Shown: positions 21,203 through 55,492 of the stretch, in pieces
Numbering within the stretch: position 1 is the first letter of the stretch
Layout: each line of letters begins with the position of its first letter
Source: Escherichia coli
Lineage (GTDB): Bacteria; Pseudomonadota; Gammaproteobacteria; Enterobacterales; Enterobacteriaceae
Length of the DNA: 64,000 bases
Assembly (NCBI RefSeq): GCF_050320075.1
Contig: NZ_CP190018.1
Direction: 5' to 3' (one strand)
Position numbers and translations under genes: made by a program
Notes under the pieces: model-generated
Databases searched by the model: none
Told to the model about the DNA's origin: nothing
What the model saw: only the letters and a program-made list of their open reading frames with translations

Positions 21203-23707
21203 ATGTCACAAACTATCGACCTGACCCTGGACGGCCTGTCCTGCGGTCACTGCGTTAAACGCGTGAAAGAAAGTCTCGAACAGCGCCCGGATGTTGAGCA
21301 GGCGGATGTGTCTGTCACTGAAGCGCACGTTACCGGGACTGCCAGTGCAGAACAGCTGATCGAAACCATCAAACAAGCGGGTTATGACGCATCTGTAAGC
21401 CACCCAAAGGCTAAACCGCTGGCGGAGTCATCAATCCCGTCGGAAGCACTGACAGCGGTTTCTGAGGCGCTTCCGGCAGCGACCGCCGATGACGATGACA
21501 GCCAGCAGTTGCTGCTGAGCGGCATGAGCTGCGCCAGCTGTGTCACCCGCGTACAAAATGCGTTGCAAAGCGTACCGGGCGTCACTCAGGCACGGGTAAA
21601 CCTGGCGGAGCGTACTGCGCTGGTGATGGGCAGTGCCTCCCCACAAGATTTAGTGCAGGCGGTGGAAAAAGCGGGCTACGGCGCGGAAGCGATTGAAGAT
21701 GACGCTAAACGCCGCGAGCGCCAGCAGGAAACCGCAGTCGCTACGATGAAGCGCTTCCGCTGGCAGGCAATTGTCGCACTGGCGGTGGGTATCCCGGTGA
21801 TGGTCTGGGGGATGCTCGGCGATAACATGATGGTCACCGCTGACAACCGCAGCTTGTGGTTAGTTATCGGCCTGATAACCCTGGCAGTGATGGTTTTCGC
21901 CGGCGGCCATTTTTACCGTAGTGCATGGAAAAGCCTGCTGAACGGTGCAGCGACGATGGATACGCTGGTGGCGCTAGGTACTGGCGTGGCGTGGCTCTAT
22001 TCGATGAGCGTCAACCTGTGGCCGCAGTGGTTCCCGATGGAAGCGCGACATCTTTATTACGAAGCCAGCGCGATGATTATCGGTCTGATCAATCTCGGCC
22101 ATATGCTGGAAGCGCGCGCGCGTCAGCGTTCTTCTAAGGCGCTGGAGAAATTACTCGATTTAACCCCACCGACGGCGCGCCTGGTCACCGACGAAGGTGA
22201 AAAAAACGTGCCGCTGGCAGATGTTCAGCCAGGTATGTTACTGCGCCTGACGACCGGCGACCGTGTGCCGGTAGATGGTGAGATTACCCAAGGCGAAGCG
22301 TGGCTGGATGAAGCGATGCTGACGGGCGAACCTATCCCGCAGCAAAAAGGCGAAGGCGATAGCGTCCATGCCGGGACAGTGGTACAGGACGGCAGTGTGC
22401 TGTTTCGTGCCAGTGCGGTCGGCAGCCATACTACGCTGTCACGGATCATTCGCATGGTGCGACAGGCCCAGAGCAGCAAGCCAGAAATCGGTCAACTGGC
22501 GGATAAAATCTCCGCCGTGTTTGTGCCGGTAGTGGTAGTCATTGCGCTGATCAGTGCGGCAATCTGGTATTTCTTTGGTCCGGCACCGCAGATTGTCTAT
22601 ACCCTGGTGATTGCCACCACGGTGCTGATTATCGCCTGTCCGTGTGCGCTGGGACTGGCGACGCCGATGTCGATTATTTCGGGCGTCGGGCGGGCGGCTG
22701 AGTTTGGTGTGCTGGTGCGGGACGCCGACGCGCTGCAACGCGCCAGTACGCTCGACACCGTGGTGTTCGATAAAACCGGGACGCTGACCGAAGGGAAGCC
22801 GCAGGTTGTCGCAGTAAAAACATTTGCTGATGTTGATGAAGCGCAGGCATTGCGTCTGGCGGCGGCGCTGGAGCAAGGTTCCAGCCACCCGCTGGCACGG
22901 GCGATCCTCGATAAAGCAGGTGATATGCAGCTACCGCAGGTCAACGGTTTCCGCACATTGCGCGGGCTGGGTGTGAGCGGTGAAGCTGAAGGTCATGCGG
23001 TATTGCTGGGCAATCAGGCGCTGTTAAATGACCAGCAAGTTGATACTAAAGCGATTGAGGCAGATATTTCAGCTCAGGCATCACAAGGGGCAACGCCTGT
23101 GCTGCTGGCGGTTGACGGGAAAGCGGTAGCCCTGCTGGCTGTACGCGATCCATTGCGTAGTGATAGCGTGGCGGCGCTGCAACGCCTGCATAAAGCGGGA
23201 TATCGTCTGGTGATGCTAACCGGGGATAACCCAACCACCGCCAATGCGATCGCCAAAGAAGCAGGGATTGATGAGGTGATAGCCGGGGTGCTACCGGACG
23301 GTAAAGCCGAAGCGATCAAACGTCTGCAAAGTGAAGGACGTCAGGTGGCAATGGTGGGCGACGGCATTAACGACGCGCCAGCGCTGGCTCAGGCGGATGT
23401 CGGTATTGCGATGGGTGGCGGCAGTGATGTTGCCATTGAAACCGCGGCGATTACCCTGATGCGCCATAGCCTGATGGGTGTTGCGGATGCGCTCGCGATT
23501 TCCCGCGCAACGCTGCGCAATATGAAGCAGAACCTGCTCGGCGCGTTTATCTACAACAGTATCGGTATTCCGGTCGCCGCCGGTATTTTGTGGCCGTTCA
23601 CTGGAACACTGCTTAACCCGGTGGTCGCCGGAGCGGCAATGGCGCTCTCGTCGATTACCGTAGTGAGTAACGCCAACCGGTTGCTGCGGTTTAAACCGAA
23701 GGAATGA
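21203..23707 (+). CDS. copA: Copper(I)-exporting P1B-type ATPase
   Basis: 834-aa ORF with two N-terminal GLSCGHC / GMSCASC metal-binding motifs, CPC transmembrane motif, DKTGT phosphorylation site and GDGIND motif; SD GGAG upstream. Confidence 0.95.
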
Positions 23708-23789
23708 TTGGTATTTACTTAATGCGTTTGTGAGATCCAGTTCTTGTTGCGCTCCTTTTATGAGTAATGCCATATAAAGTGACTGGCGC

Positions 23790-23990
23790 AGGGAGCGCGC
23801 AGGGGGCGGCCAATCGCCGCCGCCCCCTGCACCCCCGGGCTCTGGCGAACAAAATCTCCGCTGCGCGGTACCCTCAGCTTATCCCTTGCGGCTACCGGGT
23901 CGGGCGCGAGGTAACATCCCTGTAAAACGCGCCCTCAGCCCACATCCATGTGGGCTGCCCCGGCCTTCAGGGAACGCCTCGGCGATTTTG
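23790..23990. repeat. GC-rich palindromic non-coding element in the copA-ybaP spacer
   Basis: No ORF of 60 aa or more that is not attributable to overlap with copA or ybaP. Contains a 12-bp perfect inverted repeat gcagggggcggc / gccgccccctgc with an 8-nt loop and a second palindrome gcccacat-cc-atgtgggc; GC content well above the flanking sequence. Confidence 0.35.
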
Positions 23991-24135
23991 ACGCCACCAA
24001 CACCGGTGCAGTCTTTCGTTTCAAAGCAAAAACAATTTTTCGATCATATTTAAGCTACCACTGAACAAGCCTCATAACTCCATTTGCGCCATCCCTCCCC
24101 GCGCGCTAGCATGATATTTCACAAAGGGAGGTCGT

Positions 24136-24930
24136 ATGGATCTGTTGTACCGGGTAAAAACGCTTTGGGCCGCGCTGCGCGGTAATCATTACACCTGGCC
24201 TGCTATCGATATCTCTCTTCCCGGCAATCGCCATTTTCATCTGATTGGCAGTATTCATATGGGCAGCCACGATATGGCTCCCCTGCCCACCCGTTTGCTC
24301 AAAAAGCTCAAAAACGCCGATGCGCTGATCGTCGAGGCGGATGTTTCCACCAGCGATACGCCTTTTGCTAATTTGCCTGCCTGCGAGGCGCTGGAAGAGC
24401 GCATTAGCGAGGAGCAACTCCAAAACCTGCAGCACATTAGCCAGGAGATGGGCATTTCTACCTCACTCTTTTCTACCCAACCGCTGTGGCAAATCGCGAT
24501 GGTTCTTCAGGCGACGCAGGCACAAAAACTGGGGCTGCGGGCAGAATACGGTATCGATTACCAGCTATTGCAGGCGGCGAAGCAACAACATAAACCCGTG
24601 ATTGAACTGGAAGGGGCTGAAAACCAGATTGCCATGTTGCTCCAGCTCCCTGACAACGGACTGGCACTGCTGGACGATACGCTGACCCACTGGCACACCA
24701 ATGCACGGTTGCTGCAACAAATGATGAGCTGGTGGCTGAATGCGCCGCCGCAAAATAATGAAATAACGCTGCCTAATACGTTCAGTCAATCGCTGTACGA
24801 TGTGCTGATGCATCAGCGAAATCTCGCCTGGCGGGACAAATTATGCGCCATGCCGCCGGGGCGCTATGTGGTCGCAGTCGGTGCACTACACCTGTATGGA
24901 GAAGGGAATTTGTCGCAGATGTTGCGCTAA
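24136..24930 (+). CDS. ybaP: TraB/GumN-family protein YbaP
   Basis: 264-aa ORF, ATG at 24136 with GGAGG upstream. Confidence 0.85.
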   Translation: MDLLYRVKTLWAALRGNHYTWPAIDISLPGNRHFHLIGSIHMGSHDMAPLPTRLLKKLKNADALIVEADVSTSDTPFANLPACEALEERISEEQLQNLQHISQEMGISTSLFSTQPLWQIAMVLQATQAQKLGLRAEYGIDYQLLQAAKQQHKPVIELEGAENQIAMLLQLPDNGLALLDDTLTHWHTNARLLQQMMSWWLNAPPQNNEITLPNTFSQSLYDVLMHQRNLAWRDKLCAMPPGRYVVAVGALHLYGEGNLSQMLR

Positions 24931-25012
24931 AAAAATGGCCAATATCGCTATTGGCCCGTCAAAGAGGAATTTCATTTTTTTATTATTATGCCGTCACTTT
25001 AAGCGACGGTGT
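24929..25012 (-). ncRNA. chiX: ChiX (MicM/SroB) small regulatory RNA
   Basis: Minus-strand sequence ACACCGTCGCTTAAAGTGACGGCATAATAATAAAAAAATGAAATTCCTCTTTGACGGGCCAATAGCGATATTGGCCATTTTTT matches the ChiX sequence as I recall it, including the terminator hairpin (ggccaata/tattggcc) and U-run; lies between ybaP and ybaK. Confidence 0.85.
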
Positions 25013-25118
25013 AACTCGATTGTCGCTCAATCTCACCATCCTGCCAATACTCTTAGGCAAGATGACTCTTTTTTTTGGACCGCCATCAGGCGTATGCTTG
25101 CTTCGTTTTTTTGTTTAA

Positions 25119-25613
<495 letters not shown>

Positions 25614-25649: not shown

Positions 25650-27302
25650 TTACTGCCAGCTCACCTCACCTTTCGGTTCATAAACACTCACATCCAGCGG
25701 CGAGCTCTTCTGGATATACGCTTTCAGCACTTCGGCATCAATAAAGCCGGTATTCACATAGCCCGGTTTGTTATCAAGGCGCGGACAGCCATCACCGCCG
25801 GTGGCATTGAAGTTTAATGTCGCCATGCGGTAAGTTTTCGCCGGATCGACCGGTTCGCCGTTGATTTTCAGGTCGTTGAGTTTGCCGTCTTTCGCCACAA
25901 AGCTAACGTTAGCAAATTGCGGGTAGGCACCTGAATCTGGCTTCATTTGTGCGACGGCGGTCAGGTAATCAATCACCTCTTTCCCGGTCATGTCGGCATA
26001 CACCACCACATTGCCGAATGGCTGCACTTTCAGCACGTTTTTATAGCTGATATCGCCTGCTTCGATAGAATCACGAATTCCGCCTCCGCTCATCACCGCA
26101 AAGTCAGCACCAGTGCGATCCATTTGGGCTGCCAGAATTAACCGCCCCATATTGGTCTGTACAAAACGCACTTTGTCACGATCGCCTTCCAGACGACCAT
26201 TGGTTTCGCCTATTTTCACGTCCAGCTGCGCTTTGCCTTTGTTCTGGAACGGTGATAACAGCGAGATCATTTGCTGGTTTTCAGCGATTTCAGGAGTGTA
26301 AAGCACGCGCTCGCTTTTCCCGTCTTCCCAGGTCACTTTCTTCTTCAGGTTCACCGGAATCAGCTGGTAGTTAACCATTTTCATTTCGCCATTACGAAAC
26401 TCAAAATCAGCCCGTCCCACGTATTTGCCCCACTCATGCGCCTGCACAATCCAGATGCCGTTTTGTTGATCCGGTTTGCATGGCGTACCCGGCACGTAAT
26501 CGACCTGTTTTTTGTTTTCTGCCGCCATGCAGACCGGAGCTTGCGAGTGACCACCGACGATCATCGCCAGCGATCCGGCAGGCAGCGCGCGCGCCATCTC
26601 CACATCGCCCGGTGCGTTAGAGCCGTGCTCACCATTGTCGTAATGCCCCATATGGGTCGCCGCGATAATAATGTCTGGCTTTTCTGTCTGTTGCAGCTCC
26701 TGAATCACCAGCTTCGCTTCATCGGCGGGCTTACGGAACTCAATATCGGTGAAGTTTTCTGGGTTGCCTAACTTCGCTGTGTCATCCGTCGTCAGGCCAA
26801 TAACGGCAATTTTCAGATCCTGACGCTTAAACAGCGCCCATGGTTTAAACAGGCGCTCGCCGGTACTTTTCTGGTAGATATTGGCAGAAAGTAACGGGAA
26901 CTTTGCCCACTTTTCCTGCTGGCGTAATACGGTGAGCGGGTTATCAAATTCATGATTACCGATTGCCATCGCATCGTAGCCCACCAGATTCATGCCGCGA
27001 AAATCAGGTTCGGCATCCTGTAAGTCAGACTCGGGCACGCCAGTGTTAATGTCGCCACCGGAAAGTAGCAGCACGCTACCGCCTTCAGCCGCAACCTCTT
27101 TGCGGATACCATCCACCAGCGTTTTTTGCGCCGCCAGACCATATTCGCCATATTCATTGCGCCAAAAATGCCCATGATGATCATTGGTATGCAGAACTGT
27201 AATTTTGTAGGTTTTATCCTGCTCATACGCCAGAGCAGCTTCACTCGCCAGTGTAAATGTGGTTAACAGTGCTAACGCCACGCCCCGCTGCAATAATTTC
27301 AT
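25650..27302 (-). CDS. ushA: UDP-sugar hydrolase / 5'-nucleotidase (periplasmic)
   Basis: 550-aa ORF with signal peptide and NDHHGHF metallophosphoesterase motif. Confidence 0.95.
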   Translation of the reverse strand: MKLLQRGVALALLTTFTLASEAALAYEQDKTYKITVLHTNDHHGHFWRNEYGEYGLAAQKTLVDGIRKEVAAEGGSVLLLSGGDINTGVPESDLQDAEPDFRGMNLVGYDAMAIGNHEFDNPLTVLRQQEKWAKFPLLSANIYQKSTGERLFKPWALFKRQDLKIAVIGLTTDDTAKLGNPENFTDIEFRKPADEAKLVIQELQQTEKPDIIIAATHMGHYDNGEHGSNAPGDVEMARALPAGSLAMIVGGHSQAPVCMAAENKKQVDYVPGTPCKPDQQNGIWIVQAHEWGKYVGRADFEFRNGEMKMVNYQLIPVNLKKKVTWEDGKSERVLYTPEIAENQQMISLLSPFQNKGKAQLDVKIGETNGRLEGDRDKVRFVQTNMGRLILAAQMDRTGADFAVMSGGGIRDSIEAGDISYKNVLKVQPFGNVVVYADMTGKEVIDYLTAVAQMKPDSGAYPQFANVSFVAKDGKLNDLKINGEPVDPAKTYRMATLNFNATGGDGCPRLDNKPGYVNTGFIDAEVLKAYIQKSSPLDVSVYEPKGEVSWQ

Positions 27303-30654: not shown

Positions 30655-30689
30655 ACGGTGGTTGCCGGATAATAGGCGCGGATATGTAG

Positions 30690-30772
30690 GCCTGATAAGA
30701 CGCGCCAGCGTCGCATCAGGCATCGAGAGCCAAATGCCAGATGCGGCGTGAACGCCTTATCTGGCCTACGAA
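30690..30772. repeat. REP/BIME element (two inverted REP copies)
   Basis: gtaggcctgataagacgcgccagcgtcgcatcaggca and tgccagatgcggcgtgaacgccttatctggcctac, inverted relative to each other, in the ybaL-gsk convergent spacer. Confidence 0.7.
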
Positions 30773-38085: not shown

Positions 38086-40017
38086 TCAAATGGGGCGGAT
38101 ACTTTCTTCATCCAGCTCCGCATCGAAGAACCGACGCAGGGTCTGAATATTATTATCCGCAATAATGGACTCGCGCGCCTGCGCAAGTTTTTCTTCGTAT
38201 ATCGCCTGACGCCATTCCAGCGGCGTACGCACCGCGGGATTATCATCTTCAACGATAGTCAGTTCAACCGTTGAACCTTTTAACATGCTCAACGCTTCAG
38301 CCAGTTTTTGCTGTGCGCCGCGGTTGTTCAAATGCCGCTGAGAGGAGCGCAAATGCAGACATACTGCGTTGTCGCTCTCCTCTTTCCAGGCATTTAACGC
38401 CACCTGTTCGACCAGTTTTGGTAGCGAAAGTTGACTCACCTGAGCCGCCCACGGGTCGCGCTCAATGGCTTCTGCCGCCAGCTTCGCCGCCAGTTCCGGC
38501 GTTTTTTCATGTTCCAGCGCTTTTTTCAGCGCCTTCGGCGTAGCGACCACTTCTTTTTGCTGCATCACTGGAGTGGTGGCCTTCCAGCGATACGCTTCTT
38601 TTTTGGCTGGCGCTTTTTCCAGCGCCGATGGCACCGGACGCGCCTGAACGCGATCGGTGACCGAAGCCAGTCTTTCCAGCGCAGCGTTATTCACCGGCCG
38701 CGCGCGGGTAGCGGCTGCCGGTTCACTCTTTTTTGCTTTGGTTGCTCCCTGCACGCGCTGCAACTGCTGGCGCGCCGCCAGCACCTGGCTGGTGGTTTCC
38801 GGGAGCGGTACAGTCGGTGCCTGCTGCGGCGCTGATTGCGGTTGCGGCGGCACCTGGGTTGGCGTCATTACTGCCGTTGGCGCGACGGGCGCAAAGGACT
38901 GGCGTGGCACTTCTGGCTCAGGCAGCGGCATACGCGGATGGAACGCCAGCGCGCGCAACAGCGTCATCTCAACGCCCATACGGCGGTCTGGCGCATACGG
39001 TAATTCTTTGCGACCAATCAACAGCGTCTGATAGTAAAGCTGAATATCCGTCGGCGGTATGGTGCGCGCCAGTTCACGCATCCGCAGCTCGATAGCGGCC
39101 ATGTCGTTGCCAAGTGCAGCAGGCGAAAGTTGTACCATCGCAATACGATGCAACAGGCCGAGCATTTCCACCAGCAACGCTTCCCACTCGATACCACGGG
39201 CAGCGGCTTCATTAATCAGTGCCATTACGCGCTCGCCGTTGGCCTCGATCATCGCTTCAACCAGCGACAGCGCCTGATCGTCGTCAAGCGTACCCAGCAT
39301 CGCACTGACCGCCTGAGTTGAAACCTGGCCGTCACCGCTGGCAATCGCCTGGTCGGTCAGACTTAAGGCATCTCGCAGGCTGCCTTCAGCGGCGCGTGCC
39401 AGCAATTGCAGCGCCCGCGGCTCGTGAGCGATATGTTCTTCGTTGAGGATGTGCTCAAGCTGATGGCGAATTTGCTCGACATCCAGCGCCTTGAGATGAA
39501 ATTGCAGACAACGTGACAAAATCGTCACCGGCAATTTCTGCGGATCGGTCGTCGCCAGCAGAAACTTAACGTGCTCTGGCGGCTCTTCAAGGGTTTTTAA
39601 CAGTGCGTTAAAGCTGTGGCGCGACAGCATATGCACTTCGTCGATCAGATAAACTTTGAAACGACCACGCGCCGGAGCGTACTGGACGTTATCCAGCAGG
39701 TCGCGAGTGTCTTCAACTTTAGTGCGCGAGGCGGCATCGATTTCAATCAGATCGACAAAGCGCCCCTGCTCGATTTCACGACAGTTATCGCACACGCCGC
39801 ACGGCGTCGCGGTAATGCCGGTTTCGCAGTTTAGCCCCTTCGCCAGCAGTCGGGCGATAGAGGTTTTTCCGACGCCACGGGTGCCGGAAAAAAGATAAGC
39901 ATGATGAATACGCCCTAACGACAAGCCGTTCGCCAGTGCGGTCAGCACATGTTCCTGGCCGACGACGTCAGCAAAGGTTTGTGGGCGCCATTTTCGGGCT
40001 AAGACCTGATAACTCAT
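38086..40017 (-). CDS. dnaX: DNA polymerase III subunits tau and gamma
   Basis: 643-aa ORF with AAA+ Walker A (GTRGVGKT); contains the frameshift site listed separately. Confidence 0.97.
   Translation of the reverse strand: MSYQVLARKWRPQTFADVVGQEHVLTALANGLSLGRIHHAYLFSGTRGVGKTSIARLLAKGLNCETGITATPCGVCDNCREIEQGRFVDLIEIDAASRTKVEDTRDLLDNVQYAPARGRFKVYLIDEVHMLSRHSFNALLKTLEEPPEHVKFLLATTDPQKLPVTILSRCLQFHLKALDVEQIRHQLEHILNEEHIAHEPRALQLLARAAEGSLRDALSLTDQAIASGDGQVSTQAVSAMLGTLDDDQALSLVEAMIEANGERVMALINEAAARGIEWEALLVEMLGLLHRIAMVQLSPAALGNDMAAIELRMRELARTIPPTDIQLYYQTLLIGRKELPYAPDRRMGVEMTLLRALAFHPRMPLPEPEVPRQSFAPVAPTAVMTPTQVPPQPQSAPQQAPTVPLPETTSQVLAARQQLQRVQGATKAKKSEPAAATRARPVNNAALERLASVTDRVQARPVPSALEKAPAKKEAYRWKATTPVMQQKEVVATPKALKKALEHEKTPELAAKLAAEAIERDPWAAQVSQLSLPKLVEQVALNAWKEESDNAVCLHLRSSQRHLNNRGAQQKLAEALSMLKGSTVELTIVEDDNPAVRTPLEWRQAIYEEKLAQARESIIADNNIQTLRRFFDAELDEESIRPI
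38690..38734 (-). other. dnaX programmed -1 ribosomal frameshift site (A AAA AAG heptamer plus downstream stem-loop) generating gamma
   Basis: Minus strand GCAAAAAAGAGTGAACCGGCAGCCGCTACCCGCGCGCGGCCGG; slippery heptamer at 38734-38728, an in-frame-after-shift UGA two codons later, and a GC-rich stem-loop immediately 3'. Encodes the ...KAKKSEPAAATRARPVN... segment. Confidence 0.85.
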
Positions 40018-55377: not shown

Positions 55378-55492
55378 GGGTGGGGGCCCTGCCAGCTACA
55401 TCCCGGCACACGCGTCATCTGCCTTGGCTGCTTCCTTCCGGACCTGACCTGGTAAACAGAGTAGCGTTGCGGGAGAACCAACAGAGCCCCCA
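55378..55492 (-). ncRNA. ffs: 4.5S RNA (signal recognition particle RNA)
   Basis: Minus strand reads GGGGGCTCTGTTGGTTCTCCCGCAACGCTACTCTGTTTACCAGGTCAGGTCCGGAAGGAAGCAGCCAAGGCAGATGACGCGTGTGCCGGGATGTAGCTGGCAGGGCCCCCACC, matching the 4.5S RNA including the conserved domain IV region; ends are +/- 2 nt. Confidence 0.9.

Follow-up and report, generated by a model that had tools for sequence, protein, structure and literature searches.

An open-reading-frame view of the window, by which we mean the whole 64-kb stretch of Escherichia coli DNA that was analysed, shows two plus-strand genes, ybaP and ybaK, with a short and seemingly empty spacer between them. The question raised by this locus is whether the spacer holds a gene of its own on the opposite strand, as the first-pass annotation had proposed by placing the small RNA ChiX there, or whether the hairpin that lies just beyond ybaP simply belongs to the end of that gene. 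The genes of the neighborhood are arranged as follows:

21203..23707, plus strand: copA
24136..24930, plus strand: ybaP, flanking gene, from the open reading frame list
24929..25012, minus strand: chiX (sroB/MicM/RybC), small RNA gene of 84 nt, from a full-length match to Rfam RF00368 and 84/84 identity to K-12 b4585
25134..25613, plus strand: ybaK, flanking gene
25650..27302, minus strand: ushA

The minus strand at window positions 24929..25012 reads ACACCGUCGCUUAAAGUGACGGCAUAAUAAUAAAAAAAUGAAAUUCCUCUUUGACGGGCCAAUAGCGAUAUUGGCCAUUUUUUU. In order to identify this stretch, the entire 64-kb window was scanned with cmscan against all 4227 Rfam families, and RF00368 (sroB) matched exactly the coordinates and strand that had been proposed for ChiX. 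The match reaches 82.1 bits, where the gathering score is 44, and spans positions 1-83 of the 83 in the model, with an E-value of 1.8e-10 for the whole window and of 4.6e-12 when the local stretch alone is scanned. The first-pass annotation had staked its assignment on a significant match to a ChiX covariance model. A strong match is what the scan returned, but the model goes by the name of sroB and no Rfam model is called ChiX; sroB is the Rfam name for the RNA otherwise known as ChiX, MicM and RybC (PMC4098024; PMC3384567).

Alignment with chiX (b4585) of E. coli K-12 MG1655, a comparison that had also been suggested, shows that all 84 of 84 bases are common to the two RNAs, so that what was described as a match "essentially base for base" is in fact exact. 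Identity to K-12 continues through the 121-nt spacer up to the ybaK start codon, putative promoter included, and over 241 nt the window differs from K-12 at only two positions, both within the ybaP coding sequence. The gene lies between ybaP and ybaK, as claimed and as reported for MicM/ChiX (PMC3384567), and is divergent from ybaK and convergent with ybaP, which is the K-12 layout in reversed orientation. In NC_000913.3 the ncRNA chiX is located at 507204..507287, between ybaK (b0481) and ybaP (b0482); ybaP ends at 507286 and chiX at 507287, with the last two chiX bases inside ybaP. The same 2-nt overlap is found in the window, where the ybaP stop codon TAA occupies 24928..24930 and the last base of the RNA is 24929. 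The RNA had been said to start 1-2 nt from this stop codon. It does adjoin the codon, but with its 3' end and not its start, and by way of an overlap and not a gap. In short, the two loci agree in the complete RNA (84 bases), in the spacer with the putative promoter, in having ybaK and ybaP as neighbors and in the overlap with the ybaP stop; the differences, all outside the gene, are two synonymous-region substitutions in ybaP and the copA-ybaP spacer about 0.9 kb away. We conclude, with a probability of roughly 98%, that the locus is the chromosomal gene for ChiX, the Hfq-dependent, trans-acting 84-nt small RNA of Enterobacterales, whose expression, Hfq binding and regulatory outcomes in the source strain we infer from what has been published for the K-12 RNA of the same sequence.

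The transcript and the region immediately upstream of it can be divided into the following parts:

25019..25047, minus strand: putative sigma-70-like promoter, -35 TTGGCA (25047..25042), 17-nt spacer, -10 GACAAT (25024..25019), 9/12 matches in a consensus scan
24991..25009, minus strand: 5' stem-loop, RNA nt 4-22, 8 bp with loop UAA, in both the MFE and the centroid fold
24973..24990, minus strand: A/U-rich single-stranded linker, RNA nt 23-40, from a triplet count and alignment
24955..24972, minus strand: seed or target-pairing region AAAUUCCUCUUUGACGGG, RNA nt 41-58, from perfect 12-bp target complements
24937..24956, minus strand: terminator hairpin GGCCAAUA-GCGA-UAUUGGCC, RNA nt 57-76, from a terminator scan
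24929..24935, minus strand: U7 tail, RNA nt 78-84, 3' end of the RNA, from the sequence

The TTGGCA-17-GACAAT arrangement is the sole promoter-like site that the consensus scan found in 24700..25300, and the RNA 5' end (25012) lies 7 nt downstream of its -10 hexamer; from its sequence, this site would act as the chiX promoter. In a fold of ChiX on its own, the 5' stem-loop and the terminator hairpin flank a linker and seed that stay open, the linker being A/U-rich; the fold energy is -24.1 kcal/mol (z = -3.9 relative to dinucleotide shuffles). The seed region is unpaired in the centroid fold and its anti-Shine-Dalgarno core is CCUCU. It had been called C-rich, a label that does not fit UUCCUCUUUGACGGG, which is pyrimidine (CU)-rich. 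The terminator that had been claimed was recovered independently, as the terminator scan ranks the hairpin, followed by AU7, as the strongest terminator-like site. The U7 tail, whose last two bases are those that overlap the ybaP stop codon (24928..24930, plus strand), is where the proximal face of Hfq would be expected to bind. In the linker, AUAAUAAUAA is mostly conserved in the homologue alignment, and RNA nt 26-37 (window 24976..24987) form four consecutive ARN triplets, AAU AAU AAA AAA.

An (ARN)4 stretch together with a U-tail is the signature that would be expected of a class II Hfq-binding small RNA, and ChiX has been reported to be class II and constitutively expressed (bioRxiv 10.1101/2021.05.11.443692; PMC5778611). 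Other class II Hfq small RNAs, MgrR, CyaR and McaS, resemble ChiX in that they have an ARN-rich single-stranded region and a U-tailed terminator and compete strongly for Hfq (bioRxiv 10.1101/2021.05.11.443692; PMC5778611). However, their sequences, seeds and regulons are unrelated to those of ChiX, and ChiX differs from them in being made constitutively and in being controlled by decoy and sponge RNAs and not at its promoter.

Target pairing was assessed with sequences from K-12, as the targets chiP, chbB-chbC and dpiB lie outside the 64-kb window. We took the longest perfect complement as the measure of pairing, with 2000 shuffles of ChiX as the control. Nucleotides 45-56 of ChiX (UCCUCUUUGACG) are perfectly complementary over 12 bp to CGUCAAAGAGGA in the K-12 chiP leader, at a site that covers the AGAGGA/Shine-Dalgarno sequence and ends 7 nt before the AUG. 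Perfect 12-bp complements are also formed by nt 47-58 with CCCGUCAAAGAG in the chbB-chbC spacer, and by nt 46-57 with CCGUCAAAGAGG, located 25 nt upstream of the dpiB start. Of the 2000 shuffles, no more than 1 reached 12 bp with any one of the three targets. The targets originally named, chiP/ybfM and dpiB, are consistent with these complements and with the literature, the support for dpiB being its 12-bp complement and the title of a paper on DpiA/DpiB regulation by RybC (Mandin & Gottesman 2009), as cited in PMC3536696 (ref. 19).

The longest-perfect-complement measure replaced RNAduplex, which, given full-length ChiX and target windows of 128-150 nt, returned inflated duplexes with huge interior loops and a weak shuffle control (4/300, 0/300 and 23/300 for the three targets). 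Within the window, a search for further ChiX target sites with no more than two mismatches to CGUCAAAGAGGAA recovered only the antisense strand of chiX itself and two matches at chance level. A survey of 5426 complete E. coli genomes located the chiP leader in 5424 of them and the chb spacer in 5404. Given that both are near-universal in the species, the source strain almost certainly carries them.

From these features and the published work on the K-12 RNA, a mechanism can be proposed. Minus-strand transcription of ChiX would begin at a promoter of its own between ybaK and chiX and would stop at the intrinsic terminator, the U-tail of which runs into the ybaP stop codon. As a class II small RNA, it would contact the proximal face of Hfq through the U-tail and the distal face through the (ARN)4 linker, leaving the single-stranded CU-rich seed (nt 45-58) to pair with the ribosome-binding region of the chiP (ybfM) mRNA. 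This pairing would block translation and promote Rho-dependent termination and decay, such that the chitoporin is silenced by ChiX when chitosugars are absent. The dpiB leader would be a further pairing partner of this seed. Once the chb operon is induced by chitobiose, its chbB-chbC spacer would serve as a decoy, pairing with ChiX and leading to its decay, and chiP would be de-repressed; ChiZ, derived from the chiP leader, would be a second ChiX sponge. Repression of chiP by ChiX and the chb decoy have been described (PMC4098024), as have the proof of ChiX-chiP pairing by compensatory mutations, the part played by Rho and the ChiZ sponge (PMC7815308).

Conservation beyond E. coli was examined by scanning one genome per species for a pattern made up of the seed and a downstream T-run, which returned 120 loci. 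About 105 of these are genuine ChiX homologues, distributed over many genera of Enterobacterales that include Escherichia, Salmonella, Citrobacter, Klebsiella, Enterobacter, Serratia, Yersinia, Rahnella, Pantoea, Erwinia, Proteus and Hafnia, among others. The remaining 15 or so (from Xanthomonas, Bacillota, Leptospira, Alcaligenaceae and others) have neither the GGCC terminator nor the ybaK/ybaP context and were set aside as chance matches. A convergent YbaP homologue is found at all 102 loci with enough flanking sequence, at a median of 6 nt from the RNA 3' end, and a divergent YbaK homologue at 97 loci, at a median of 120 nt upstream. The ChiX RNAs of Salmonella, Citrobacter, Klebsiella, Enterobacter, Serratia, Yersinia, Pantoea and Proteus and others have the same seed AAAUUCCUCUUUGAC, the same GGCC-AUAG-loop terminator stem with a U-tail, the A/U-rich linker and the ybaK/ybaP synteny. 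That the seed is invariant among the homologues collected follows in part from the scan itself, whose pattern included it.

What differs between homologues is the linker, by 1-2 nt in length, and above all the 5' stem-loop, the sequence of which is different in almost every genus and which is weak in Serratia, Yersinia and Hafnia. Across 81 aligned homologues the terminator stem is paired in 99.5% of cells and shows A-U to G-C compensatory changes at two pairs. RNAalifold on the MAFFT alignment of these 81 sequences recovered the terminator only; the 5' hairpin is not in register in that alignment, with 45% of cells paired and no clear signal. Among 91 homologues there are 76 distinct sequences of the paired region of the 5' hairpin, and when each is folded separately and compared with shuffles, the hairpin is usually kept (MFE of -5 kcal/mol or lower in 73 of 91; median z = -2.4). 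The 5' helix is therefore best regarded as a predicted element, for which the evidence is per-sequence folding and not column-wise covariation.

How well, then, does ChiX account for this locus compared with the alternatives? None of the data speak against ChiX. One alternative is that the hairpin and its T-run are merely the transcription terminator or 3' untranslated region of ybaP, with no independent RNA gene involved. The hairpin begins only 6 nt past the ybaP stop codon, and RIL-seq pipelines have labelled ChiX reads as 'ybaP.EST3UTR' (PMC10954441). However, a T-run follows the hairpin on the minus strand only; on the plus strand the hairpin stands between an upstream A7 and a downstream CGTCAAAG, and without a T-run it is not an intrinsic terminator for ybaP. 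Furthermore, the 60 nt that precede the hairpin on the minus strand are conserved and a promoter-like site sits at the right distance, the sroB model is matched over its full length, and an independent ncRNA is annotated at this place in K-12. We consider this explanation very improbable. Even less credible is that the stretch codes for protein. Two plus-strand open reading frames in the six-frame list, 24843..25118 (91 aa) and 24866..25150 (94 aa), do cross chiX, but they overlap the ybaP 3' end and the ybaK start, RefSeq annotates no coding sequence at the chiX stretch, and in other genera the linker differs by indels of 1 and 2 nt and the 5' hairpin has been replaced wholesale, with seed and terminator left invariant, which is the conservation of an RNA and not of codons. 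We would discount just as heavily the idea that this is a decayed or silent chiX pseudogene that has lost its role in the source strain. No evidence supports it, and it is raised solely because the copA-ybaP spacer is rearranged relative to K-12. That rearrangement lies beyond ybaP, at a distance of more than 900 nt. Neither the RNA nor any part of the spacer upstream of it differs from the functional K-12 gene (100% identity), and chiX is present once, as it is in 5422 of the 5426 E. coli genomes.

A further possibility concerns transcription across the ChiX gene rather than its identity. The terminator scan found no canonical intrinsic terminator for ybaP on the plus strand in 24931..25133, the only terminator-like site before ybaK on that strand being a weak one of 5 pairs at 25087..25100, and the consensus scan found no consensus-like ybaK promoter in the 121-nt spacer. 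Transcription of ybaP may therefore read through chiX into ybaK. The resulting mRNA would be antisense to all 84 nt of ChiX and might sequester it as a cis-encoded sponge, or might give rise to transcriptional interference, which would couple expression of ybaP and ybaK to ChiX levels. We think this very unlikely, and as ChiX is reported to be abundant and constitutive, a significant effect of such read-through is improbable.

In E. coli, the 84-nt query finds one chiX copy in 5422 of 5426 complete genomes, at 99% identity or higher in 5011 of those 5422; four genomes have no match, and two of the 5422 matches are on records labelled as plasmids. Despite this distribution, RefSeq lists only ybaP under the chiX match in most of these genomes, as the small RNA is not annotated by PGAP. 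In the RefSeq records that were inspected, such as NZ_CP042899.1, PGAP gives only ybaP and ybaK, whereas chiX is annotated in the K-12 reference. Consequently, an ORF-based view of the window misses a functional gene. The 'ybaP.EST3UTR' label noted above had similarly to be replaced by ChiX (PMC10954441). The presence of chiX at this location is already known, and finding it here is correct but ordinary and brings no new biology. Its value is one of annotation, in that the ybaP-ybaK spacer should not be read as empty nor the hairpin as a ybaP terminator, and the gene concerned is that of a textbook small RNA: it keeps the chitoporin ChiP constitutively silenced, a decoy mRNA relieves this silencing, and it competes strongly for Hfq.

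Several other features came to light during the analysis. Citrobacter braakii ATCC 51113 has, in addition to a normal chiX (L114), a second locus with the exact ChiX seed AAAUUCCUCUUUGAC at L113:2467..2556 on the minus strand. This locus has a different terminator hairpin, GGGUG-CUCAUAU-CACCC followed by a U-run, gives a sub-threshold sroB match of 24.3 bits, and adjoins an ORF that by eye resembles a transposase fragment, in a stretch without long ORFs. It could be a seed-sharing small RNA carried on a mobile element, or it could be chance.

The copA-ybaP spacer of the window (23708..24135) lacks ybaQ and the three REP elements found at this place in K-12, the 794-nt K-12 spacer being replaced by 428 nt of mostly unrelated sequence. 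This spacer includes an unannotated repeat of about 270 nt, located at approximately 23742..24012 with its RNA sense on the minus strand, which E. coli genomes carry at a median of 4 places each; the repeat-bearing copA-ybaP arrangement is found in 346 of 5426 complete genomes. Paralogues of the repeat are located in the K-12 aqpZ-lysO spacer and in the dusC-yohP spacer. The Rfam family TwoAYGGAY (RF01731), which is predicted to bind CsrA (PMC4333381), matches the repeat over its full length at 23837..24002 on the minus strand, at a sub-threshold 32.8 bits against a gathering score of 43; the K-12 aqpZ-lysO paralogue reaches 30.6 bits against the same score. The hairpin loops ACAUGGAUGU and ACAGGGAUGU carry GGA and resemble CsrA sites, and four copies of the repeat have a common and very stable fold of -140 kcal/mol with 3 compensatory pairs. 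The repeat may be the old 'RSA' repeat of K-12 (PMC5172473) and is not part of the ChiX finding.

The Rfam scan also returned three further matches in the window, each above its gathering score:

38689..38753, minus strand: DnaX programmed -1 ribosomal frameshifting element, RF00382, 96.8 bits against a gathering score of 35
55387..55483, minus strand: 4.5S/small SRP RNA (ffs), RF00169, 68.1 bits against a gathering score of 40
30689..30766, minus strand: naRNA4, a REP-element-derived 'nucleoid-associated' RNA, RF02564, 80.7 bits against a gathering score of 59.5

The frameshifting element is expected for the dnaX gene in that part of the E. coli chromosome, and the naRNA4 match at 30689..30766 is most simply read as a REP/BIME repeat pair.
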